Shown: one piece after another, positions 1,866 through 13,065 of the stretch
How positions within the stretch are numbered: the first letter of the stretch is position 1
Layout: every line of letters starts with the position of its first letter
Source of the DNA: Gammaproteobacteria bacterium
GTDB taxonomy: Bacteria; Pseudomonadota; Gammaproteobacteria; SURF-13
Assembly: GCA_035561915.1 (NCBI GenBank)
Contig: DATMXC010000066.1
Span: 1 to 29,974, forward strand
Length of the DNA stretch: 29,974 nucleotides
Direction of reading: 5' to 3'
The notes under the pieces: model-generated
What the model was told of the DNA's origin: nothing
The model's database searches: none
The model's input: only the letters and a program-made list of their open reading frames with translations
Made by a program: the position numbers and the translations under genes

Positions 1866-2056
1866 TTAGGTTCTACCCATAATTTCGTCCCTGAAGCGGT
1901 GGATCCACTCACCTTCTCATTCCTGCTGAATTCATGGTCGCCTAGCGGGGTGACAACATCACCACCACTGCAATATTCGGATAGGGCCGCCTCAATACTG
2001 GTGCCTGCCGTTTTTAATGACTTGATAAAGAATTTGCGACCGGATGAGAACATCAT
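1866..2056 (-). pseudogene. Degraded sulfotransferase family 2 gene, paralogue of 12376-13065
   Basis: MMFSSGRKFFIKSLKTAGTSIEAALSEYCSGGDVVTPLGDHEFSRNEK aligns to MIISHTHKFIFIKSWKTAGTSIEAALSAHCSGDDIVTPLGDYGFNRDEK, with one codon missing. A 1-nt deletion near 1912 shifts frame; the shifted frame continues EWIHRFRDEIMGRT* (stop 1866-1868) against GEWVHK in the intact copy. The ATG overlaps the upstream stop (ATGA). Confidence 0.8.
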
Positions 2057-4155
2057 TGCATCTTCTGGCTGGGGTCATGAACCCCATGAAACAAAGTGCG
2101 GCTATTATTTGATGCACGCTCCAACCTGAGCATCGCATCACCGCTCACGTCGGATAGCTCCTGCACAGGACCGTCAGGCCACCGTATGGTCACGGACTTA
2201 GCCTTAGAATGCGGCCCCAGGCCAAAATAAAGTCGATAGTGCCCTTGAGATAAATAAGCCCCCTCGCTGGCGCCAACTTCCTGTGTCTGTCGACCTTCAG
2301 GGGTGACCACCGTAACCTGCGCACCGATCGCCTGTCGGTTGCCTGCCGCCCCGACCAAATTCAATTCAAGCCAGTGATTTTTCGCACCGACATTGCGGTA
2401 GGCAAGGAGCTTCCACTTGGGCCTGTCGTCCTTCCCCTTAACGTCTTTCGATTTGAACGGCTTCTCCCACCATCGCCATAGGGAAGGGTTATCCTCCAGC
2501 GCTATCAGCGCATGGAGGGAGCCATCATTGTACCGATCGAACCAGTTGATTATTGCAGCCTGGTACTTATTCTGTGGAAGTGACAAGAATCCCGTGGCTT
2601 CGAATTTGTGGCCCTTGTTCTGATGGAACAAGCCTTCAGGCACAGTGTGCAGGTCTGGATGGCCGTCGTTATCGTAATCGACCCATGCGGCCGCTACGCT
2701 CGCCGCGGGAAAGCCCAGTGACGACGGATCAACCGCTCTGAACCTGCCACCATCGTTGATCAGTACAGCGTTCCCCTTCTTCGAGGCGACAAACACGTCC
2801 AAATCGCCATCTCTATCAAAGTCGGCAAGAGACATCTTACCATCGAATTGCCAGTAGTCATACGTGTTGCCCTTTAAGCCGGGTTCGTCGGCTCTTTCGA
2901 ATTTCCCTCTATAAATGAATTCGCGCGAAAATTCCCCCGCCTGATTGCGATAGAGGAAATATCCTTCGTCCTCATGGGTCAGTAGATCCATGTCTCCATC
3001 CCCGTCTGCATCGAGCCAGGCGAAATCGATGAGCTGATGCTGAGGGATGTCGAGTCCGACTTTGGCCGCGACATCATCGAAGTGTCCATTGCCGTCCTGA
3101 CGGTATAGCTGTTTTGGGTAGTTGCCCGAGACATTCCCCCGGTCTTGGCAATTGATGTAAAGATCCAGCCGACCGTCTTGGTTAAAATCCACCCATTTGA
3201 CATGCCGGCCCGAGCAATCCTTCTTCTCAATGCCTACTTCGCTCGAGACTTCTCGAAACCGGTGTTTCCCCGTAGTTATCAGCAACTCGTCCTTGATTGT
3301 GCGCCTTACGCTTTCCGGAAACTCCCTGAGCGTACCGCCAAAAGCACCTCTGGAGATGAAGACATCCAACTGGCCGTCGTTGTTGTAATCAGTCCAAGCC
3401 ACGCCATGGCGATCCTGCAAGGAGAGAGAAAAAGCCTGAGTGTGGGGGGATACCTTTCGCGGACCCAGGTACACATAGGCCGACGGCAAAGCATCATCAA
3501 TATTGAAGGTAAGGGGGCCTCCTCTCGATGGGACATAGAGCGCAAGGTGTGCATCACTCAAGGCTGCAAAATCGGTGATGGTTTCGCTGACCGTACCGGA
3601 CTGGGGAGGCAGTATTTGGGTTTTGACTTGGAATCCGTTATTTCTCACGACCTCCACTCTGCTGAGAATCTTGAGATCCCCTTTTAAGGCTCCCACTTTG
3701 TTCAAGTTATGGGTACGCAGATTAAGGGTGTCACCTACCCAGTAGATGTAAAGCCCCGCCTTGTCCATATCGGGGGCTTGCATGGACTGCGCCCAGCCAG
3801 GGAAATCGCGGCTCTGATCCAGTCCCCACTCCGAAAGCACATCCCGATAGCCCCCGCGTCCATCTGCGAGCCAAAGGAACTGTTGGTAGTTATGGTTGGA
3901 TGTGTAGATGTCCAGTAGGTCATCTCCATTCGCATCCACGATGCCCAGATCGAAAATCTGATCAACCTCTTGCGAGGGCGGAGGATCTTTGACAAACCAG
4001 TTGCTCTCCGAAGCAATGAATCGAGTGACGGATGGTTTGATGTCGTCCCTGGCCGAATATGCCATGGCCAGAACAGACAACAACAGGGCGAGCAAAGTCA
4101 TCTTTTTGATGAACATGATAGATATCTTCCAGATCGTCTGGTGTGTAGTGGCCAT
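2053..4155 (-). CDS. Secreted FG-GAP/VCBS-repeat protein with C-terminal ASPIC/UnbV domain (CRTAC1-like), up to 700 aa
   Basis: Hydrophobic signal-like segment LLALLLSVLAMA. Repeats DANGDDLLDIY, DYNNDGQLDVF, DFNQDGRLDLY, DADGDGDMDLL, DFDRDGDLDVF and DYDNDGHPDL. The C-terminus NHWLELNLVG..NRQAIGAQV..LSQG..LYFGLG..RWPDG is ASPIC/UnbV-like. The start could also be the ATG at 4116. Confidence 0.9.
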   Translation of the reverse strand: MATTHQTIWKISIMFIKKMTLLALLLSVLAMAYSARDDIKPSVTRFIASESNWFVKDPPPSQEVDQIFDLGIVDANGDDLLDIYTSNHNYQQFLWLADGRGGYRDVLSEWGLDQSRDFPGWAQSMQAPDMDKAGLYIYWVGDTLNLRTHNLNKVGALKGDLKILSRVEVVRNNGFQVKTQILPPQSGTVSETITDFAALSDAHLALYVPSRGGPLTFNIDDALPSAYVYLGPRKVSPHTQAFSLSLQDRHGVAWTDYNNDGQLDVFISRGAFGGTLREFPESVRRTIKDELLITTGKHRFREVSSEVGIEKKDCSGRHVKWVDFNQDGRLDLYINCQDRGNVSGNYPKQLYRQDGNGHFDDVAAKVGLDIPQHQLIDFAWLDADGDGDMDLLTHEDEGYFLYRNQAGEFSREFIYRGKFERADEPGLKGNTYDYWQFDGKMSLADFDRDGDLDVFVASKKGNAVLINDGGRFRAVDPSSLGFPAASVAAAWVDYDNDGHPDLHTVPEGLFHQNKGHKFEATGFLSLPQNKYQAAIINWFDRYNDGSLHALIALEDNPSLWRWWEKPFKSKDVKGKDDRPKWKLLAYRNVGAKNHWLELNLVGAAGNRQAIGAQVTVVTPEGRQTQEVGASEGAYLSQGHYRLYFGLGPHSKAKSVTIRWPDGPVQELSDVSGDAMLRLERASNNSRTLFHGVHDPSQKMQ

Positions 4156-4170
4156 TGTTATTGTTGCAGC

Positions 4171-5250
4171 CTACGCTGCGCCCACAATTTCGTCGCGGAT
4201 GGCCTCCAGATAGCCGCGTCCGAAGCGCAGGTCGGGCTCGACATAGTTACCTTCCGCCCATTCGTTCCAGGCCTTGAGGAACAGAATCTTGTGCTCCGGT
4301 TGATGGTCGGCCACCTTGTCTAAGGCGTCGCGCAGGTGACGGCGGAACAGTTCGGGCGTGGATTCATGGAAAACCAGCCCGCTCATCCCGGTGCGAGGGG
4401 TATTGTCCCAGTTGGGCAGCACGCAGGGATAGTCCATGAAATCGGTTTTCTCGGCGCGCAGCAGGAACGGGATCATTTCCTCGTAGGTGTAGATGGAAAG
4501 CTGGTAACGGCCCCGCCCCAGCATGACTTTGAGCTTGGCGTCCCAGAACCGCCTGGGTATGCGCCCGTTGCGGGGTGGCAGCTTCTGCATCATGCAAGCG
4601 TCGAAACCCCGTGTGCGCGGATCCCAGCTTGGATTGAAGTGGGACACGCCGACGAGATAGAGTCCGTTCAGTCCCGCCTGATGCGCCCGCTCACGCCAAT
4701 AGTCCGTCACTCGCTGTACGTCCGGGATGTCATCGGGTTTGTACACGAGAAAGAGCGGCTTGCCATCCACGGTGATGTAACGCGGATCGCTGAAGGCCTT
4801 GAGCAGAAAATCGAAATGGGCCGCGTGATCAGCCATGCCCGAGTACACCTGCTCGATCAATACCCTGTCCGGCGTGCCCTGCCAGATGCTGTTCCAACTA
4901 TGGTTGGCCCAGCACAGGCAGAATGGGAAATCGGGCTCGCCCGAGGCCAGCACCTCATTGAATGGACGCTCCAGGATGCGCCGTCCGCCGAACCAGTAGT
5001 GGTAATAGCAGAAGCCCTCCACGCCGTATTCCCGCGCCAGCTCTGCCTGGGCCGCGCGCGCCTCGGGCAGCCGCAGATCGTAGAACCCCAGGTCTGCGGG
5101 AATGCGTGGCTGATCGTGGCCGCGGTAGAGCGGCTTGGCCTTGGCCACGTTGGTCCACTCGGTGAAGCCCTTGCCCCACCAAGCGTCGTTTTCCGGCGTG
5201 GGGTGAAATTGAGGCAAGTAGTAGGCGATGACGCGCGCTTGCTTATTCAT
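4171..5250 (-). CDS. WbsX-family / glycoside hydrolase family 99-like domain protein, 359 aa
   Basis: YYLPQFH..ENDAWWGKGFTEW, DLGFYDLR, GFCYYHYWF, FCLCWANHSW, PNWDNTPR and AWNEWAEG. Confidence 0.9.
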   Translation of the reverse strand: MNKQARVIAYYLPQFHPTPENDAWWGKGFTEWTNVAKAKPLYRGHDQPRIPADLGFYDLRLPEARAAQAELAREYGVEGFCYYHYWFGGRRILERPFNEVLASGEPDFPFCLCWANHSWNSIWQGTPDRVLIEQVYSGMADHAAHFDFLLKAFSDPRYITVDGKPLFLVYKPDDIPDVQRVTDYWRERAHQAGLNGLYLVGVSHFNPSWDPRTRGFDACMMQKLPPRNGRIPRRFWDAKLKVMLGRGRYQLSIYTYEEMIPFLLRAEKTDFMDYPCVLPNWDNTPRTGMSGLVFHESTPELFRRHLRDALDKVADHQPEHKILFLKAWNEWAEGNYVEPDLRFGRGYLEAIRDEIVGAA

Positions 5251-5347
5251 TTTGTGTGCAGAACCTGACAGGTCATTCTCGTTAATCTTGCAAGCATTGT
5301 GCCTACGCCCAGAGTCGCCTTAATGACATCGGGAGGCGCGGCTCAAG

Positions 5348-6466
5348 CTACGATTCCCGCGGAAACAGGCATTCCGATACCCGGCCGACCCAGCCCTTAT
5401 CGCCCGACGGGATCGTGCCGCGCATGAGTATCGAACGCTTGTTGAGCTTTGCCCAATTGCGAGCCACATTGCCCTCCGTATAAATAAGAACAATGATTCT
5501 CCTGTCCGGGTGCAACTCGAGTCCACGCGTGAATGCGCTGGCTCTTAAATGGGTTTCATAATGGCCGAGCGCATTCGCCTGCATCCTGGCGATCTGATCC
5601 GCGCCCATCTCCAGAACGGAGCGGATCTTATTGATCAGATCGTCCTTATCGTCGAAAGCTATGCAGTTTTCCATGTGGGTGAGTTTCGGATCGAACCATT
5701 CCGGGTAGTTGGTGATCGGGACGGTTCCCACGGCCATGGCCTCAACGATGTTATGGCACATCGGCATCACGATCCCGGGCGGACCCAGGAAAAAATCGGC
5801 CTTTGCCAGGTTGCGCAACCATTCGCGATCGTCGATCCACATCCTGCTGGTGTCCACAATCACGCACTTGTTGGTATAGGCGGAGTCATGCAGTTCACTG
5901 AGCGTGGACAGGTCTTTTACCAGGATCGCATCGTCGCCCATGCGCTCCAGAACGGTATTGATGACCTCCAGGCGCGGGAGCTTTGCTTTCGGGTAGCGGA
6001 TGCGATTTCGCCCATAGTTCTTAGTGTCGCCCGAAAAGAAAACCCGAACCTTTTTTTCGCTGCCCCTGCATTGCTGCAGGCGCTGCTCAAGATCGGGCCC
6101 ACTGTGTACCGGATGCACCGGGAACGGCATGATGACCGGGTTCTTGAAGCAGTAAGACGAAAACAAGTCATCCCGCACCTCGATCTTCTTGCGCCATTCG
6201 TATTTACCAAGCGCCTTGTCTTCCTTGTCGTAGAGATAGATCCAGTCTTCCGGATTAGTGGGAGGGCTATCTATCAGTGTCAGGCCTTCCAGCGAGAAAA
6301 CCAACTTCCCGTATTTTTCCAGACTGTCCGGCGCCAGGTTGTTGAACAGGCTTATGCGATAGCCCGTGGAGGAAAAGGCATTCAGCAAGGAATACAACAG
6401 ACGTCCCTGTTCCAGCAGGATTTCCTTTCCCGAGAACTTGGCGAATAAAAATTTCGGATTCGTCAT
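5348..6466 (-). CDS. Hypothetical glycosyltransferase, exostosin/GT47-like GT-B C-terminus, 372 aa
   Basis: Long ORF in operon orientation. VFFSG...RLEVI...ADFFLGPPG..PMCHNIVEAMAVGTVPI resembles the exostosin F.L.P.G.....R..EA...G.IP pattern. The CDS is secure; the function is tentative. Confidence 0.6.
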   Translation of the reverse strand: MTNPKFLFAKFSGKEILLEQGRLLYSLLNAFSSTGYRISLFNNLAPDSLEKYGKLVFSLEGLTLIDSPPTNPEDWIYLYDKEDKALGKYEWRKKIEVRDDLFSSYCFKNPVIMPFPVHPVHSGPDLEQRLQQCRGSEKKVRVFFSGDTKNYGRNRIRYPKAKLPRLEVINTVLERMGDDAILVKDLSTLSELHDSAYTNKCVIVDTSRMWIDDREWLRNLAKADFFLGPPGIVMPMCHNIVEAMAVGTVPITNYPEWFDPKLTHMENCIAFDDKDDLINKIRSVLEMGADQIARMQANALGHYETHLRASAFTRGLELHPDRRIIVLIYTEGNVARNWAKLNKRSILMRGTIPSGDKGWVGRVSECLFPRES

Positions 6467-6566
6467 CTTGGGTTCTTGATGGTTAGTAACAATGGCACGG
6501 CCGACCGGTCAGGCCCGTACTCATTCGCGACGCAGGGTCATCGGCACCGGGAGGTGCGCTCGACGC

Positions 6567-7862
6567 TCACTCCACAATGAAGCACTCACTGACCAAGTCC
6601 TCTTCGTTGTAAGTCAGCCCCTGCTTGGACTTGCAGTCATATACCCGCTTCCCGACAGTGGTGGCGATGAGCTGAGCCGCCGCAGTTTCCCATTCCGGGC
6701 TGGGATCATCACAAGCATAAGCGTCGGCTTGGCCTTCCGCCACTAGACACATTGCCAGCGCGCGGCTGGCCGGCGTCGGCCCCTGTTTTTTTTGCGCCGA
6801 GATGGCGGTTGTTTTCGGCCCGAGGTTTTCGCGCACATCCAGTCGTCGTGGCTCCGCGGCGCCTTCCATCTTGAAGGCGCCTTTGCCTATTCTCGCGTAG
6901 TAGACAGTGTCCATGACGGGCGCATAGACCACCCCATAGATTGGGGCGCCGTCCTGAACGAGAGCGATATTGATGGTAAATGCCCCATCCGCTCCGAGAA
7001 ATGCCCCTGCCCCGTCGAGCGGGTCAACCAGCCATAGGTGATTCCACTTCGCTCGCTCGGAATAAGGAACAGCACTGCTCTCGCGAGAGAGTACGGGTAT
7101 TTGGGCATTCAATTTTTTCAGGCCGTCCACGAGCACTTTGTGGGCAGCCCGGGTGGCTCTTTGCAACGCGCCTGCGTCCCCACCGCGCAGCGCATACAGC
7201 GCCTTCCCCACCACACCCGTCGCCTGCCCCTGTTGGTAGGCCCGCAAGGTCGCCTGTCCCGCCCGCTTGGCCACCGCAACAATGTCATCGATATTCATCC
7301 AAGTGATCTGGGTGACGTTGGCTTTCGGGAAAGGAATCTCGGGCACGGGCTGGCCGAGGAAGGGGCACAGCTTTTCCCAGCCTTCGCCGCCGATCACGTT
7401 GATCACGAGCAAGTCCTGCGGCCGGCCCTTGAAATACTCCAAGGCGCCGCTGACGAACTTTTCATAGCCGCTCAGGAATTTCTGCTCGTCATACACGGTG
7501 CATCCGTACAAGTCTATGAAGAGCTGGTTATGGGCCTCGGTCTGTTTTTCCGCGAGGCGCTCCGTGAACTGCTTCTTGCAGGACTTCAGCCAACCATCCC
7601 TATCTCTGATCGTCAGGATGAACTTTGAGTTTGGATACCGTGCATCGAGCTCGCGATAGAAACTGGGGATGGGCGTGTCGGTGAGCGCATCGTACGCGTC
7701 TACCACCTCCAGATCGACAGAGGACAGGTCTCCGGCGCGGTAGTTTTCGATCCCCGGATAGTCCTTGGTCTTGTAGCCCAAAATTCCGAGGGCTTGAGCC
7801 AGGCTGGTCGTGCCGGTCTTGGAAAGGCCGATGCCGAAGATTTTGTGGTTAGCGGTTCCCAT
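6567..7862 (-). CDS. Fusion: sulfotransferase (Sulfotransfer_4-like, about aa 1-188) + CysQ/inositol monophosphatase-like domain with degenerate active site, 431 aa
   Basis: N-domain: GIGLSKTGTTSL (5'-PSB loop) and IRDRDGWLKS (3'-PB). C-domain from 7298: AGQA..AY, WLVDPLDG, FTINIALVQDGAPIYGVVYAP, CLVAEGQAD and WETAAA. Confidence 0.85.
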   Translation of the reverse strand: MGTANHKIFGIGLSKTGTTSLAQALGILGYKTKDYPGIENYRAGDLSSVDLEVVDAYDALTDTPIPSFYRELDARYPNSKFILTIRDRDGWLKSCKKQFTERLAEKQTEAHNQLFIDLYGCTVYDEQKFLSGYEKFVSGALEYFKGRPQDLLVINVIGGEGWEKLCPFLGQPVPEIPFPKANVTQITWMNIDDIVAVAKRAGQATLRAYQQGQATGVVGKALYALRGGDAGALQRATRAAHKVLVDGLKKLNAQIPVLSRESSAVPYSERAKWNHLWLVDPLDGAGAFLGADGAFTINIALVQDGAPIYGVVYAPVMDTVYYARIGKGAFKMEGAAEPRRLDVRENLGPKTTAISAQKKQGPTPASRALAMCLVAEGQADAYACDDPSPEWETAAAQLIATTVGKRVYDCKSKQGLTYNEEDLVSECFIVE

Positions 7863-8002
7863 CGGACCTGTTCCAGGTATGTGTGAGACAGTTGCAATTG
7901 TAATGTCTCTGATTCTCTGTCGGGTTGCCCCTGACCTTGACTACGAAACGTTTATTTACTGAGCTTTCAGTATTTGGATGACAGTTTGTCGTCAAAATCG
8001 AA

Positions 8003-8090
8003 ATCCCCTGTCCCCCTTCGCTGAAGGGGGAACCAGCTATCCGGCGCTGGTTAGAAGCCCCCCCCTTTGCAAAAGGGGGAACGGGGGGAT
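8003..8090. repeat. 88-bp multi-hairpin (cloverleaf) palindromic element
   Basis: Outer stem ATCCCC 8003-8008 / GGGGAT 8085-8090 encloses three hairpins: CCCCCTTC-gct-GAAGGGGG (8012-8030), AACCAGC-8nt-GCTGGTT (8031-8052) and CCCCCTTT-gca-AAAGGGGG (8061-8079). Confidence 0.7.
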
Positions 8091-8184
8091 CTGCCATGGC
8101 ATCAACCATTTGCTGAATTCCCAATAGGAAGTTAGGTGTCACGGCCATTTGCCCCTACCGCGAACCCGATGTTGTCAACGGATG

Positions 8185-9306
8185 TCATGCGGGCGGTTCC
8201 TTAGTATCTTCGGTCTGAAGTGCTTTCCGAGTTGCTTCCAGATAGGCTCTTCCCCAATACAGATCTGGCTCCAGATGATTCCCTTCAGCCCACTCATTCC
8301 ACGCGTTTATGAAGATGATTCGCTCATCGCCTTCGTGCTTCCTAACGGTTCTTGTGAAAACCTCTCTCGACCAAGACTCATACGCCTGGGGAGTTGATCC
8401 CTGGAGGATCGTGGCGCCCTCCTTTCTGCGTGCAGTGTTATCCCAGCCCGGCGTAACACAAGGGAACCGAACCCAGTCTGCTTCCGGTCGGTCTAGCATG
8501 CCTCGGACCATTGCATCGTATGGGATTATCTTGTTCTTCAGAAAAACCTTAGGCAGGAAACCCAGGCTAGCGAGCAAGCGAGCAATCCTCCCCCTATGCC
8601 TTACACTTCCTATGTTCCAACTGAATGGCGCAAATTCAACGTCGGCGTCGAAGCCAAGATCAGGCGCTTTGACGCCTCTTATTACACTGTTATAGCTCTC
8701 CACCCGCGCCAGATAGAGGTCACCCACACCTGCTTTTCGCGCGACATCCCGCCAGATTTCGGCGGTGCGTGCTGGCTCAGGTAGCAGCTCGGCTCGGTAC
8801 ACGAGAAAAAGTGGCTTGCCATTTATCCGGACGTACCGTTCATCATGGAGTGCGGGGAGCAGGCTTCGAATGTGCGCCAAGTCGTCCTCGTGACTATAGT
8901 TCTGTCGCAATAGGACGTCCCGTTCTCCCCCCGTCCAACGCCGTGTCCAATTTTCGTTTGCCCAGCACAGGCAGAAGGGCAAATCAGGTTTACCGCTTGC
9001 CAGCACTTCGTTGAAAGGCCGCTCCAGGATGCGCCGACCATTAAACCAGTAGTGGTAGTAGCAAAAACCGTGGATGCCGTATTCCCGCGCCAGTTCCGCC
9101 TGCGCCTCGCGCGCCTCCGGCAGGCGCAAATCGTAGAAGCCCAGGTCGGCAGGAATGTGGGGCTGATAGTGGCCGGGGAACTGGGGCTTCGCCTTGGCGA
9201 CGTTTCTCCACTCAGTAAAGCCTTTGCCCCACCATTCGTCATTTTCGGGGATGGGATGAAACTGCGGCAGATAAAAACAAATGGCTTTAACACGAGTGTC
9301 TGGCAT
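8185..9306 (-). CDS. WbsX-family / glycoside hydrolase family 99-like domain protein, 373 aa (second paralogue)
   Basis: FYLPQFH..ENDEWWGKGFTEW, DLGFYDLR, GFCYYHYWF, FCLCWANENW, PGWDNTAR and AWNEWAEG. Confidence 0.9.
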   Translation of the reverse strand: MPDTRVKAICFYLPQFHPIPENDEWWGKGFTEWRNVAKAKPQFPGHYQPHIPADLGFYDLRLPEAREAQAELAREYGIHGFCYYHYWFNGRRILERPFNEVLASGKPDLPFCLCWANENWTRRWTGGERDVLLRQNYSHEDDLAHIRSLLPALHDERYVRINGKPLFLVYRAELLPEPARTAEIWRDVARKAGVGDLYLARVESYNSVIRGVKAPDLGFDADVEFAPFSWNIGSVRHRGRIARLLASLGFLPKVFLKNKIIPYDAMVRGMLDRPEADWVRFPCVTPGWDNTARRKEGATILQGSTPQAYESWSREVFTRTVRKHEGDERIIFINAWNEWAEGNHLEPDLYWGRAYLEATRKALQTEDTKEPPA

Positions 9307-9315
9307 GGTTCAGGT

Positions 9316-10191
9316 TCAGTTTCTGTTTTTGTTGCGTAGCCAGTTAATCAGGCCGCTAAATGCGCCGAAGCGGTGGTTTTCCAGCCAGCTGATTTGTGAT
9401 TTCAGCCCCATGTTCTGCCGGGTTAGCTCGCCGACTTTCCCTTCAAGCTTGTTGATGGTGTCGAGGGCGTCGAGCTGCCGGTAGTCGGAAATCTGCGCGT
9501 CAACAGTGATCGGGTGGGCCTTAACGATGAATTGAAAGGTGAGTGCTTCCGGGTTGTTTTCGCCAACCCAGTCGAGAAAAGCCTGGTCCTGTGCAGAGCC
9601 GCAGTGCACGCTGAACTCAGTTTCCTGCGGGGTCATGGTCACCCGATCCCAGGATACGATTCGGTAGCCTGCTTCTTCGAATAACCTCGCCACATTTTTC
9701 TTCGTAAAAAAACGAATGTGGGTGTTATCGAGCAGACCGTATTTCTGATAATCAAATCGCCCATGCGCGAGTTCCCAGCAGATGGCTGCATGGGCGATAT
9801 TGGGGATGGAAGCAATCAGGTGGCCACCCTCCTTGAGGAAGGGGGCGCACTTTTTTAGAGCGCCAGCCGGATCGTAAAGATGTTCCAGAACATCGGCAAA
9901 GGTAATGACATCAAAGCGCTTGTCCCCGAGCTTCTGAGCCAAATCAAGGTCTTCAATACTTCCGATGATGAGGCTGTCACAATAAGGGCGGGCATCCTCA
10001 GCAGCCAGCGGATCGATCTCGATTCCCGTCACCTGGCAACCGAGACGTTCCTTGAGTTGACGGGTCTGTATGCCGCTTGCGCAACCGACCTCAAGCACCT
10101 CCTGGCCACTGCCTATCCATGCGATAACTTTGGAGGCCGAGTGATTCTGGTCATCTGGGATGTTATAGAGATACTTTTTAGGGGCCGACAT
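9316..10191 (-). CDS. Class I SAM-dependent methyltransferase with short C-terminal coiled coil, 291 aa
   Basis: VLEVGCASG (motif I), VTGIEID, FDVITFADVLEHL, SIPNIAH and HIRFFT. The tail LDTINKLEGKVGELTRQNMGLKSQISWLE has heptad character. Start reassigned to MSAPK at 10191, overlapping the wzt end. Confidence 0.88.
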   Translation of the reverse strand: MSAPKKYLYNIPDDQNHSASKVIAWIGSGQEVLEVGCASGIQTRQLKERLGCQVTGIEIDPLAAEDARPYCDSLIIGSIEDLDLAQKLGDKRFDVITFADVLEHLYDPAGALKKCAPFLKEGGHLIASIPNIAHAAICWELAHGRFDYQKYGLLDNTHIRFFTKKNVARLFEEAGYRIVSWDRVTMTPQETEFSVHCGSAQDQAFLDWVGENNPEALTFQFIVKAHPITVDAQISDYRQLDALDTINKLEGKVGELTRQNMGLKSQISWLENHRFGAFSGLINWLRNKNRN

Positions 10192-11449
10192 GTGTCTTCT
10201 CATTGAAATCCAATAAAGGCGGTGTGCATGACCAGATACCGGAAAGGGATACCAAACCCTCATTCCAGGTTCTGTCTTCTGCGTTGTCTGAGACAACTTG
10301 CAGATGCAACAGATTTTCAGCATAAAAGATCGTCCTGGCACCACTGCCTTCCGCCACACCGGCACGGAGGGAGTAAACCCCAGGCATGAACGGAAATGAT
10401 GGAATATCGAAAGTCAGCACATGATGCCCGGCTTCGAGGTGATCCAATTTCAGTTGATTGATGCTGTGTTGCGTCGCCAGATATATGAAGTCAGTCGTAT
10501 GAATACCGATCCCGAAAATGGGCACACGAATTTCTTTTGTTACCTCGAAATTGAGCTGAATCTTAACGGCTTGCTCATGCCTGAGTTTGCTGATGGGGTT
10601 TCCTTCAGCATCCAGAATTTCAATGCCGCGCAACAGAATTTCACCCGTTGCCCATTCATTGCTGTTTGCTGAATTCAGGTTGGTGGAGTTGCCAGTGCTT
10701 ATTTGTGTATCGCTGGCCTCGTAAAATTGGGTGCATACAGCGTTGGCGTTGCCATCACTGATGGCCTGTCCCTTATTGAATAAGATAACCCGGCTACACA
10801 AGCGCTCAACTTGGCGGATATTGTGGCTGACCAGTAGTACGGTCCTGCCCTGTCGCTTGATCAAGTCCTCCATCCGGTCAAAACACTTCCTCTGAAACGC
10901 TAGATCCCCCACAGCAAGCACTTCGTCCACGATCAGAATGTCCGATTTCACGCTGGTGGCAATGGCGAACCCAAGCCGCACCGACATGCCGGAGCTGTAG
11001 CGCTTGATCGGGGTATCGATGAACTCTTCCAGCTCGGAGAATGCGACAATTTCGTCGAATTTCTTTTTAATCTCGGCCTTGGGGATGCCGAGGATCGCGC
11101 CGTTGAGAAAGATATTTTCTCGCCCGGTGAGGTCGCCCACCAGTCCTGCACCGACCTCGATCAATGGTGCGACCTTGCCGTGTACTTTCACGCTGCCGCG
11201 GGTGGGTACACTGATGTTGGCAAGCATCTTGAGCAAGGTACTTTTGCCTGCGCCGTTGTGGCCGATGATGCCCAGCACTTCGCCTTCTTCGACCTTGAAG
11301 TCCACGTCATCCAGCGCCTTGAACAGCGGCCGTTCCCGCACGGGTTCGCCGCGCAGGCGGGCGAGGGTGTCGTGCAGGGTCTGCTTTAAGCCATGCAGGG
11401 CGCCGAGGCGGTATTCCTTGGTGACGTGGTTGACTTCGATGATGGCCAT
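10178..11449 (-). CDS. wzt: ABC transporter ATP-binding protein Wzt with C-terminal Wzt_C-like domain, 423 aa
   Basis: Walker A GHNGAGKST, signature YSSGM, Walker B ILIVDE, DLAFQRKC and H-loop VSHN, followed by a beta-rich C-terminal extension. Start MAIIEV at 11449, 2 nt after the wzm stop. Confidence 0.93.
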   Translation of the reverse strand: MAIIEVNHVTKEYRLGALHGLKQTLHDTLARLRGEPVRERPLFKALDDVDFKVEEGEVLGIIGHNGAGKSTLLKMLANISVPTRGSVKVHGKVAPLIEVGAGLVGDLTGRENIFLNGAILGIPKAEIKKKFDEIVAFSELEEFIDTPIKRYSSGMSVRLGFAIATSVKSDILIVDEVLAVGDLAFQRKCFDRMEDLIKRQGRTVLLVSHNIRQVERLCSRVILFNKGQAISDGNANAVCTQFYEASDTQISTGNSTNLNSANSNEWATGEILLRGIEILDAEGNPISKLRHEQAVKIQLNFEVTKEIRVPIFGIGIHTTDFIYLATQHSINQLKLDHLEAGHHVLTFDIPSFPFMPGVYSLRAGVAEGSGARTIFYAENLLHLQVVSDNAEDRTWNEGLVSLSGIWSCTPPLLDFNEKTHVGP

Positions 11450-11451
11450 GG

Positions 11452-12270
11452 CTAGATGACGTCCGCGAAATACGATTCGGCGCGTTTGAAGATCACGTAG
11501 CTGATGGGGAGCAGGATAATGACGAGGACCATGCCAGGCCACATGGACGATATGTCGGGGGGGATGCCGCGCAGCACTACGTGTTGGAATGCGTCGATGA
11601 TGCCCGCGAGCGGGTTGAGCGTGTATACGGTGTAAAGAAAATTCGACCATTCCCCGGCGGCCTGATTGACCAGCAGCTTTTCCTTGACCAGTGTCAGCGG
11701 GTAGATCACCGGCGAGGCATACATGAGCAACGAGAATGCCACCGGCAGCGCCGTAGCGACGTCCCGGTAATAGACGTTCATGGCGGCACCGACCATGGAA
11801 ATGCAAAGCACTGCCAGGATCGTATAGGCGATGATCAGGGGCACCCACAGCAGATAAATCGTGGGGGACATGTGATAGTAAACCATCAACCCGGCGAGAA
11901 TCAGGAAGTTGATGCCCAATTCCACTAATTTGGTGACGACGCTCGTCAGCGGGAGTATCTCGCGCGGGAAGTAGATCTTGCGGATGAGATTCGCATTACC
12001 GACTACGCTGGAGACGCCTTCGGAGGCGGCTTCCTGGAAGAATATCCAGGGCATGAGCGCGGCAAAGGTGAGAATGGGATACGGAATATCGCCGCTATCG
12101 ATTCCCACGAAGCTCTTTACCAAGGAAAAAATGAGCACCAGCATGAGGGGTTTAAGGACCGTCCAGGCCAGCCCCAGATAGGCTTGTTTATAGCGCACGG
12201 CCATGTTTTTCCAGGCGAGCGCCGCCATTAGTTCGCGGTAGTCGTAGAGGTCTTTTATTGCGGCCAGCAT
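11452..12270 (-). CDS. wzm: ABC-2 type polysaccharide transporter permease Wzm, 272 aa
   Basis: RYKQAYLGLAWTVLKPL, NLIRKIYFPREILP, YYRDV, YASPVIYP and LNPLAGII; multiple TM segments; directly upstream of wzt. Confidence 0.93.
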   Translation of the reverse strand: MLAAIKDLYDYRELMAALAWKNMAVRYKQAYLGLAWTVLKPLMLVLIFSLVKSFVGIDSGDIPYPILTFAALMPWIFFQEAASEGVSSVVGNANLIRKIYFPREILPLTSVVTKLVELGINFLILAGLMVYYHMSPTIYLLWVPLIIAYTILAVLCISMVGAAMNVYYRDVATALPVAFSLLMYASPVIYPLTLVKEKLLVNQAAGEWSNFLYTVYTLNPLAGIIDAFQHVVLRGIPPDISSMWPGMVLVIILLPISYVIFKRAESYFADVI

Positions 12271-12375: not shown

Positions 12376-13065
12376 CTAAGCTCCTTCAAACTGATAGCCC
12401 AGCAGCCGGATATCATTGTTGTGCCGTTCGGCGACGATGTTTTTGGTCTCTTCGTCGTAGTACTCGGAATAGTGGTGCCCCTTCTCCCTCATCCCCGATT
12501 TCAGTTGGGGGAGGCCGGTGATTGGAATATCCACGGTCTTGCACACTTCGCTGAGGCCGTCCGCGAGGTTTTCGTAACGAATCACAAAGTCGGCGCACAG
12601 CTGGTTGTCGACGACGTAGAAGCGATCGTTGGTTTCCCACTCACCCGCCCTGACGAACTGGGAGAACATTTTCCTGGTGTCGCGCAGCGCGTCGAACGGC
12701 ACACCCAAGTGGTGGTAGAAGCGTTTCTTCGCCAGAGGCGGCGCGTTCCGCCGGTTCTCCCAATAGAACAGGGAAATCATGCGGTCCCAGGGGTTCCTGG
12801 CGATGCTGAACTTGAAATAGTTTTCCCACACCTCTGCTGGAATCTGACTCTTGATGGTGAGGGCATCGTCGTGCTGATGAAAATCGCCGGCATTCATCGG
12901 CTTGTGAACCCATTCGCCCTTTTCGTCGCGGTTGAAACCGTAGTCGCCCAGCGGCGTCACGATGTCGTCTCCGCTGCAGTGTGCCGACAGTGCAGCCTCG
13001 ATGCTCGTCCCCGCCGTCTTCCATGACTTGATGAAGATGAATTTGTGTGTGTGGGAGATGATCAT
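12376..13065 (-). CDS. Sulfotransferase family 2 domain protein, 229 aa
   Basis: KFIFIKSWKTAGTSI (5'-PSB), FSIARNPWDRMIS (3'-PB), DFVIRYENL and HYSEYYDEET. Confidence 0.88.
   Translation of the reverse strand: MIISHTHKFIFIKSWKTAGTSIEAALSAHCSGDDIVTPLGDYGFNRDEKGEWVHKPMNAGDFHQHDDALTIKSQIPAEVWENYFKFSIARNPWDRMISLFYWENRRNAPPLAKKRFYHHLGVPFDALRDTRKMFSQFVRAGEWETNDRFYVVDNQLCADFVIRYENLADGLSEVCKTVDIPITGLPQLKSGMREKGHHYSEYYDEETKNIVAERHNNDIRLLGYQFEGA

Follow-up and report, generated by a model that had tools for sequence, protein, structure and literature searches.

Architecture of the fusion gene

The window analyzed here is a stretch of 29,974 nucleotides from a gammaproteobacterial genome (contig DATMXC010000066.1) that holds a large polysaccharide locus. 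Our subject is one gene of this locus, at 6567-7862 on the minus strand (Table 1), whose product (P0001, the reference for all residue numbers and identities below) joins a sulfotransferase to a domain derived from CysQ, the nucleotidase that removes 3'-phosphoadenosine 5'-phosphate (PAP). Across a large family of such fusions the CysQ-derived half has lost its catalytic residues and has been retained under purifying selection. Inspection of the translation reveals a single open frame of 431 codons, in which Pfam places a Sulfotransfer_4 domain at residues 7-184 (E 1.8e-34) and an Inositol_P domain at residues 195-423 (E 1.4e-28), such that Sulfotransfer_4 runs straight into the CysQ-type Inositol_P fold. 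The 431-residue translation and the two Pfam domains bear out a preliminary description of this DNA, made from the letters alone, which had claimed that an uninterrupted frame joins a sulfotransferase using 3'-phosphoadenosine 5'-phosphosulfate (PAPS) to a CysQ fold. Junction residues N182, V183, T184 and W188 are invariant among 91 homologues, which suggests a fixed contact between the halves.

Table 1 Features of the fusion gene and its conserved neighbor, with window coordinates
Feature	Coordinates	Strand	Basis
Whole gene, 431-residue fusion P0001 of a sulfotransferase and a CysQ-derived, predicted dead phosphatase	6567..7862	minus	Open reading frame (ORF) list and translation, two Pfam domains
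N-terminal Sulfotransfer_4 domain, residues 7-184, probably active	7311..7844	minus	PF17784, solved homologues, invariant columns, dN/dS
GIGLSKTGTTS, P-loop-like 5'-phosphosulfate-binding motif	7803..7835	minus	Coordinates checked by translation
TIRDRDGWLKS, 3'-phosphate-binding motif region	7581..7613	minus	Coordinates checked by translation
C-terminal CysQ-derived putative pseudo-phosphatase domain, residues 190-431	6570..7295	minus	PF00459, TIGR01331, Foldseek, dN/dS
LQRAT for xTxAD; motif-1 Asp replaced by Thr237	7152..7166	minus	Alignment and translation
SRE for SEE; first metal-ligand Glu replaced by Arg260	7080..7088	minus	Alignment to 3b8b and the genome's own CysQ
DPLDGAGAF for DPLDGTKEF; both Asp retained, catalytic Thr replaced by Ala285	6999..7025	minus	Alignment and translation
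Shortened, probably disordered segment in place of the SRSH strand and next helix	6768..6863	minus	Alignment, AlphaFold pLDDT
SRALA for GSSLK; CysQ-specific motif gone	6753..6767	minus	Alignment and translation
WETAAA for WDTAAx; metal-ligand Asp replaced by Glu392	6675..6692	minus	Alignment and translation
Conserved neighbor, 372-residue protein with GT-B glycosyltransferase fold	5348..6466	minus	AlphaFold, Foldseek, synteny

The N-terminal half scores 119.9 bits against PF17784 (cutoff 22.8) over profile positions 1-212 of 215, which places it within Sulfotransfer_4, and it aligns over its full length to the solved enzymes 8y9p, 5tiz and 4mua. Many of its columns are invariant in the same 91 homologues. 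Both PAPS motifs of the family are present: G10, G12-T18 and S20 of the P-loop are invariant, with the same loop found in the solved homologues, as are R86, W91 and S94 of the second motif, which aligns with ILTiRD..W..S of those structures. From what is general for sulfotransferases, we take the P-loop to be the 5'-phosphosulfate site and RD..W..S the 3'-phosphate site. Because the motifs are invariant and align with solved enzymes, and because this domain has the lowest ratio of nonsynonymous to synonymous substitution (dN/dS, below), the sulfotransferase half looks functional. The glycan-cluster context, and it alone, suggests a carbohydrate as the acceptor. A full-text literature search found nothing on the catalytic base of Sulfotransfer_4.

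The CysQ-derived half retains its fold and has lost its catalytic motifs

With 100.6 bits against PF00459 (gathering threshold 27), the C-terminal half belongs to the inositol monophosphatase (IMPase) fold superfamily. CysQ (TIGR01331) is by far its best NCBIfam match, at 165.1 bits, which falls under the 228.8 cutoff for CysQ equivalogs. The closest solved protein by sequence is the Bacteroides thetaiotaomicron CysQ 3b8b, and a Foldseek search with the AlphaFold model returned the same structure first (E 9e-19, TMt 0.71), with IMPase-family structures making up all of the top 50. Identity between this domain and the genome's own CysQ is 35%.

To work, an enzyme of the IMPase type uses a Glu and the Thr to position metal 1 and the attacking water. 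We compared P0001 with 3b8b and the genome's own CysQ by alignment and verified each motif substitution by translating its exact coordinates. The two Glu, the D-x-I-D-x-T residues, the motif-6 Asp and the motif-1 Asp are strictly conserved in IMPase-like proteins (PMC5516325, from which our LSEE motif definition is also taken). P0001 reads VLSRES at LSEE and DPLDGA at D-P-(I/L)-D-G-T, where the two Asp are present and the Thr is Ala285, and it carries Glu392 and Thr237 in the places of the WD Asp and the motif-1 Asp. The CysQ-specific motifs SRSH, GSSLK and ADxYPR are missing as well, with YPR reading YAC. With the Glu and Thr that serve metal 1 and the water gone, and an Arg occupying the place of a metal ligand, the CysQ half would be unable to run the canonical multi-metal mechanism, and its phosphatase is in all likelihood dead.

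The LQRAT, SRE, DPLDGAGAF and SRALA replacements listed in the preliminary description are all present at their exact coordinates. Its reading of WDTAAG to WETAAA holds in part: the change from D to E is meaningful, and that of the final G to A is not, as the genome's genuine CysQ itself reads EWDTAAAQ. The shortening of the SRSH segment, also noted there, is visible both as an alignment gap, the segment being ~15-17 residues shorter than in the genome's own CysQ, and as a predicted local distance difference test score (pLDDT) below 50 at residues 345-360.

Loss of catalytic residues extends across the family

To place P0001 among its relatives, we drew on a search of 5.8 billion proteins that returned hundreds of full-length fusions. 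In the best 120 homologues (50-92% identity), the first metal-ligand Glu position holds Arg in 91 and Glu in none, the catalytic Thr position holds Glu in 66, Ala in 34 and Thr in 4, and the WD Asp position holds Gln in 64, Glu in 27, His in 18 and Asp in 5. The canonical E/T/D triad occurs in 0 of the 120.

A motif table then set 19 canonical CysQs against 204 degenerate fusions over 67 columns, chosen for a conservation of at least 90% among the canonical sequences. Inspection of these columns reveals that the fold core is kept in the 204 fusions, with W277 at 100%, E390, N419 and G310 at 99%, C372 and P315 at 98%, and A300 and R270 at 97%. Retention at the catalytic positions is 1% for the motif-1 Asp, 2% for the first Glu, 15% for the second Glu, 2% for the Thr and 5% for the WD Asp; Asp280 is retained in 93% and Asp283 in 84%. 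The first-Glu column holds Arg in 120 of the 204, and the WD Asp column holds Gln in 89, Glu in 44, His in 39 and Asp in 10. Losses extend to the features particular to CysQ: the K-x-D loop is retained in 2-3%, SRSH in 1-5% (it is mostly deleted, its S/S/H columns being gaps in 138-150 fusions), GSSLK at 5% for Gly, 4% for Ser and 1% for Lys, and ADxYPR in 4-17%. In the most divergent cluster representatives (P0134, P0138, P0142 and P0147) DPLDG itself is gone. The earlier claim that the changes concentrate in catalytic motifs is thus too narrow, as the CysQ-specific K-x-D loop, SRSH, GSSLK and ADxYPR are lost too.

No new residues have become fixed at the former catalytic positions, whose entropies lie between the 40th and 91st percentiles of the domain, a pattern that resembles relaxation of the pocket more than the emergence of a conserved site. 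This bears on whether the domain might still be a phosphatase, with a rearranged metal site or another substrate. Two Asp ligands remain, the Glu, Gln or His found at position 392 are all able to bind metals, and the Thr position is Glu in 87 of 204 fusions, where it is close in the fold to the missing Glu and might stand in for it. P0001, however, has Ala at the Thr position, Arg for the first Glu and Thr for the motif-1 Asp; replacement residues differ by lineage, unlike those of a conserved new active site; and the domain scores under the cutoff of the CysQ hidden Markov model and evolves several-fold faster than active CysQs. We regard residual phosphatase activity as very improbable.

The domain is retained under purifying selection

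Selection was assessed on the DNA of P0001 and five close relatives, giving 15 pairs of 6 genes for which dN/dS was calculated by the Nei-Gojobori method (NG86). Values for the C-domain are 0.12-0.25, with upper bootstrap bounds at or below 0.41, and those for the N-domain are 0.04-0.12. The C-domain is constrained, less so than an enzyme. At greater distance, identity to P0001 is 29-41% for the C-domain and 54-70% for the N-domain, and end branches of the tree span 0.3-3.0 substitutions per site for fused C-domains versus 0.04-0.6 for canonical CysQs. In the comparison with L084, L085, L087, L091 and L092, most pairs have a clearly lower synonymous divergence in 6570-7295 than in 7296-7862 (for example 0.22 vs 0.45 and 0.82 vs 1.94), for which codon-usage constraint, recombination and saturation are possible explanations.

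No stops or frameshifts were found in the C-domain among ~200 homologues spanning several classes, and the dead CysQ domain was never found alone or shed. Two candidate stand-alone genes (P0186 and P0201), which would have hinted at a non-covalent partnership, turned out to be truncated pieces of fusions: each sits at the edge of a 1-kb contig and is preceded by the open end of a sulfotransferase C-terminus. These data can be set against the view that the domain is a functionless remnant decaying neutrally. Lost catalytic residues and fast sequence evolution are what such a remnant would present. Against it stand the dN/dS values with their upper bounds, the intact frames and invariant fold core of ~200 homologues, and the fact that the domain was never deleted while N-domains diverged to ~55% identity; we give neutral decay almost no credence.

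Because ~200 homologues are degenerate and the C-domain is under purifying selection, the loss is a trait of the family and not that of a decaying allele. Enzyme homology, family-wide loss of catalytic residues and purifying selection, which are marks of a pseudoenzyme domain, are all found here. The preliminary description had proposed a pseudo-phosphatase that is retained rather than decaying, had suggested a survey of homologous fusions, and had named neutral decay with canonical motifs in close homologues as the contrary outcome. The survey agrees with the proposal: the ~200 degenerate fusions are all non-canonical at the catalytic positions, close homologues share the degenerate motifs, the C-domain evolves at the ratios given above and the genome carries a separate canonical CysQ.

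Canonical sister fusions point to a probable active ancestor

A search of 1.84 billion cluster representatives gave ~30 fusion clusters at the 50% level. P0125, one of these representatives, and the 85%-identical P0270 share the fusion architecture but carry canonical CysQ motifs throughout (LTEAD, LSEE, DPLDGTKEF, GSSLK and EWD), and their Inositol_P score is 171.9 bits, versus 100.6 in P0001. Canonical and degenerate fusions share the same junction, at which PFPxxNV leads directly into the first CysQ helix. Judged by their motifs, P0125 and P0270 are presumably truly bifunctional.

A tree of the sulfotransferase domain groups all 49 fusion N-domains in one clade versus 30 stand-alone enzymes (Shimodaira-Hasegawa-like approximate likelihood-ratio test, 97), within which the 47 degenerate fusions form a clade without P0125 and P0270 (support 91). 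The simplest and likely history would begin with a single fusion event between a sulfotransferase and an active CysQ, followed by a single catalytic loss and then by erosion. A 473-residue paralogue in one metagenome-assembled genome (MAG) retains the full-length SRSH region while its catalytic residues are gone, and as an intermediate it fits stepwise decay. That MAG, a gammaproteobacterial one, carries two or three paralogous fusions (L095 980-2401, G006:C12; G006:C252) together with a genuine CysQ.

A predicted structural role for the retained domain

Our favored reading, held with moderate confidence, is that the gene encodes an active glycan sulfotransferase with a dead, structurally required CysQ-derived module. 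The ancestor would have been a bifunctional enzyme that sulfated its acceptor and destroyed its own inhibitory by-product PAP, a form that would persist in P0125 and P0270. The phosphatase would have lost its metal-binding and catalytic residues once, at the origin of the large degenerate clade; later erosion would have taken away the motifs particular to CysQ as well as, for the majority of members, the SRSH strand and helix. The dead domain would have been kept as a non-catalytic, rigidly attached structural or scaffolding module of the sulfotransferase, which may stabilize the enzyme or shape or position the acceptor side within the polysaccharide assembly machinery. Clearance of PAP would fall to a separate enzyme acting in trans, in this genome the genuine CysQ.

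That the domain is never shed and is under purifying selection argues that it now serves some non-catalytic part. A fixed contact of both halves would fit the invariant junction residues and three family-specific conserved residues, H275 (97%), N274 (86%) and D304 (90%). The genome, a 1.79-Mb MAG in 283 contigs, carries a separate CysQ that has every canonical motif and scores 323.7 bits against TIGR01331 (cutoff 228.8), so PAP clearance does not depend on the fusion. This CysQ also rules out, for this genome, that the fusion replaces CysQ.

Among the functions offered in the preliminary description, binding of PAP or PAPS is placed first. The dead domain would then hold PAP or PAPS without hydrolysis and might take up the product, load the donor or be an allosteric sensor that links sulfation to the level of PAP. 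In favor of this, the domain comes from an enzyme that binds PAP and is attached to one that produces it, pocket-near positions persist (D280 93%, D283 84%, E390 99%, W391 95%, Y418 92%, N419 99%), and Arg260 could hold phosphate without a metal. However, the features that distinguish CysQ among the IMPases and that probably bind PAP, namely the K-x-D loop, SRSH, GSSLK and ADxYPR, have disappeared from 90-99% of the fusions; the SRSH strand and helix are deleted in most members and DPLDG is gone in divergent ones; and pocket positions are of middling to high variability (the entropy percentiles above). Given the absence of these motifs and a pocket that differs from one lineage to the next, we rate a structural role above conserved PAP binding, an argument drawn from CysQ-specific conserved motifs rather than from mapped PAP contacts. 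Binding of PAP or PAPS thus seems unlikely, though worth keeping in view. Its most specific form is a nucleotide sensor or trap, in which the Asp pair, Glu-Trp, Tyr-Asn and the new Arg260 would hold PAP or PAPS and gate the enzyme or relieve product inhibition; we hold this version to be unlikely too, and a little more so. If true, the sensor would couple surface-glycan sulfation to the sulfur-nucleotide state of the cell as a pseudo-phosphatase turned allosteric module, and it would have a living, active, ancestor-like form in P0125 and P0270 for direct comparison. Of the PAP/PAPS-binding, regulatory or scaffolding functions offered in the preliminary description, the data favor scaffolding and leave PAP/PAPS binding unsupported, with its motifs retained at 1-10%.

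A remodeled pocket might instead recognize the acceptor, such as a phosphorylated or sulfated sugar or a lipid-pyrophosphate-linked glycan, and the domain would then be a substrate-binding module. Stand-alone Sulfotransfer_4 enzymes of ~200 residues do without such a module, and the fusion is always in glycan clusters next to a GT-B enzyme (the details of this spacing are given below). H275, N274 and D304 could belong to such a site; these residues are, however, equally explicable as interdomain contacts, and the pocket residues vary across the family, though acceptors may vary as well. Acceptor binding strikes us as quite unlikely.

Several observations weigh against a dead structural module and the history proposed for it. 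The AlphaFold model of P0001 has a pLDDT of 87.9 and a predicted template modeling score (pTM) of only 0.62, which leaves the orientation of the two halves uncertain. A single metal ion might still be coordinated by D280, D283 and E392. Canonical CysQs share the conserved pairs E390-W391 and Y418-N419, which may therefore still touch a nucleoside, and Arg260, which is moderately well conserved (59%), could be a direct ligand for phosphate or sulfate. In the N-domain tree, the branch that sets P0125 and P0270 apart as sisters has a support of 91, under the trusted-branch threshold of the tool. In a free tree of C-domains these two lie among stand-alone CysQs, which may reflect a later domain replacement; this is also the placement that slow-evolving sequences would take, and a single clade of all fused C-domains was not rejected by an approximately unbiased test (p 0.30). 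Finally, of eight genomes known to carry the fusion, each of them a MAG, just four have a CysQ above cutoff; the remaining ones are incomplete bins, so the absence of CysQ from those four is uninformative.

Relation to known proteins and annotation

The family is widespread in bacteria and combines two known kinds of protein, the pseudoenzyme domain and the PAPS-cycle fusion. With CysQ itself (3'(2'),5'-bisphosphate nucleotidase; solved as 3b8b and, from M. tuberculosis, 5djj/5djk) P0001 shares fold, homology and the context of the PAP pathway. Unlike CysQ, it lacks the motif-1 Asp, first Glu, Thr, WD Asp, SRSH, GSSLK and YPR, is fused, and evolves several times faster. P0125 and P0270, which are metagenomic (L089/L090), have the same two domains and junction, are its sisters by the N-domain tree, and likewise lie in a polysaccharide cluster with an FG-GAP/UnbV_ASPIC and Sulfotransfer_2 pair and a homologue of the GT-B neighbor; they differ in the fully canonical CysQ half and in the GT-B homologue being 6.5 kb away instead of adjacent. 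Solved Sulfotransfer_4 enzymes (SgdX2 8y9p; the schistosome oxamniquine-activating enzymes 4mua and 5tiz; 9kf1) match the N-domain over its full length, including the P-loop and RD...W..S. These are single-domain proteins of ~200-260 residues with small-molecule substrates, whereas P0001 adds a 240-residue domain and lies in a glycan cluster.

SuhB (6tqn and 8wdq among the sequence matches) is of the same fold family and provides a precedent for a protein-binding role: it is a Nus factor in ribosomal RNA antitermination complexes, a role separate from phosphatase chemistry. Unlike the fused dead CysQ domain, SuhB keeps its catalytic residues and stands alone. Other PAPS-cycle fusions (CysN/CysC, metazoan PAPS synthase, metagenomic CysC::CysQ and RmlD::CysQ) likewise join consecutive PAPS/PAP steps, but keep catalytic motifs in both halves; an example is P0199, a 548-residue RmlD-type reductase fused to a canonical-motif CysQ. 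Further metagenomic architectures were seen in P0199, P0157, P0163/P0172/P0202, P0159 and P0029; this set includes a 552-residue protein with two Inositol_P stretches, tandem Sulfotransfer_4 duplications, a 1108-residue TPR, GT41 and Sulfotransfer_4 protein, and a 708-residue Desulfobacula protein with ~280 extra N-terminal residues ahead of the fusion.

Neither a natural sulfotransferase-CysQ fusion nor a CysQ-derived pseudoenzyme turned up in any paper in a full-text literature search. Many members (P0008, P0010, P0013 and others) are named '3'(2'),5'-bisphosphate nucleotidase' or 'PAPS 3'-phosphatase' by JGI, and NCBI names members 'inositol monophosphatase family protein'. Both sets of names overlook the sulfotransferase half, those of JGI imply an activity that the members probably lack, and genomes would be wrongly credited with PAP recycling.

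Sulfotransferases are inhibited by their product PAP, and a natural fusion with a PAP phosphatase is for that reason an elegant solution. PAP removal is a known bottleneck of PAPS-dependent biocatalysis, in which the active fusion could serve. A family that holds both a presumably active form and a large clade with a phosphatase retained after its apparent death offers a natural experiment on the birth and persistence of pseudoenzymes.

The surrounding locus and the carriers of the fusion

The polysaccharide locus of the window contains two WbsX-type glycosyltransferases, a coiled-coil methyltransferase, Wzt (with a Wzt_C domain), Wzm, Sulfotransfer_2 and Sulfotransfer_3 genes, an MBOAT protein, GT2 and GT4 enzymes and a Wzy_C/DUF5935 protein. 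Across 16 fusion loci the surroundings switch between ABC-transporter (Wzm/Wzt) and Wzx-type flippase systems, and the polysaccharide clusters that hold the fusion are rich in sulfotransferases. Full-length fusions among species-representative genomes are found in MAGs only, with carriers in Thiobacillus, Hydrogenophilales, Casimicrobiaceae, Ectothiorhodospiraceae, an unclassified gammaproteobacterium, Desulfobulbaceae and Desulfacinum. As the carriers identified so far are uncultured sulfur-cycling bacteria, the family marks undescribed sulfated surface polysaccharides.

The most constant companion of the fusion is the gene at 5348-6466. Its product has no Pfam or NCBIfam match, its homologues are 350-380 residues long, and its AlphaFold model (pTM 0.85) finds only GT-B glycosyltransferases among the top Foldseek matches in the PDB. 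A homologue is present in 15 of the 16 fusion loci and directly adjacent in 14. It lies 6.5 kb off in the canonical-fusion locus L089, the sequence of L090 ends short of that distance, and L005 has no homologue within its flank. Based on the structural model, the neighbor appears to be an unnamed glycosyltransferase family that forms a two-gene module with the fusion. The two genes are probably co-transcribed; the 100-nt gap between them holds no terminator-like site on the minus strand. Complex prediction for the full fusion and the neighbor gave a score of 0.00, which counts neither for nor against binding.

Upstream of the fusion, the gap at 7863-8184 (322 nt) gives no Rfam match and shows no conservation against close relatives; it contains G runs and C runs. 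A scan of 5200-8400 found no sigma-70-like promoter sites and no minus-strand terminator. The 99-residue ORF at 7849-8148 looks spurious, though relatives carry a called gene of 100-110 residues in the same place.

Several clusters that otherwise differ share a pair of genes near the fusion, one for an FG-GAP/UnbV_ASPIC protein and, after it, a Sulfotransfer_2 gene (window 2053-4155 and 12376-13065; L087 5155-7921; L091 2989-5703; canonical-fusion locus L089 11218-13859). This pair looks like a second module that accompanies the fusion. The Wzt ORF at 10178-11848 on the minus strand encodes 556 residues, including an Arg/His/Pro-rich N-terminal extension of ~140 residues that overlaps wzm. Because the ABC domain begins near MAIIEVNHVTKEY and the L084 homologue has 412 residues, the true Wzt start is probably internal to this ORF.

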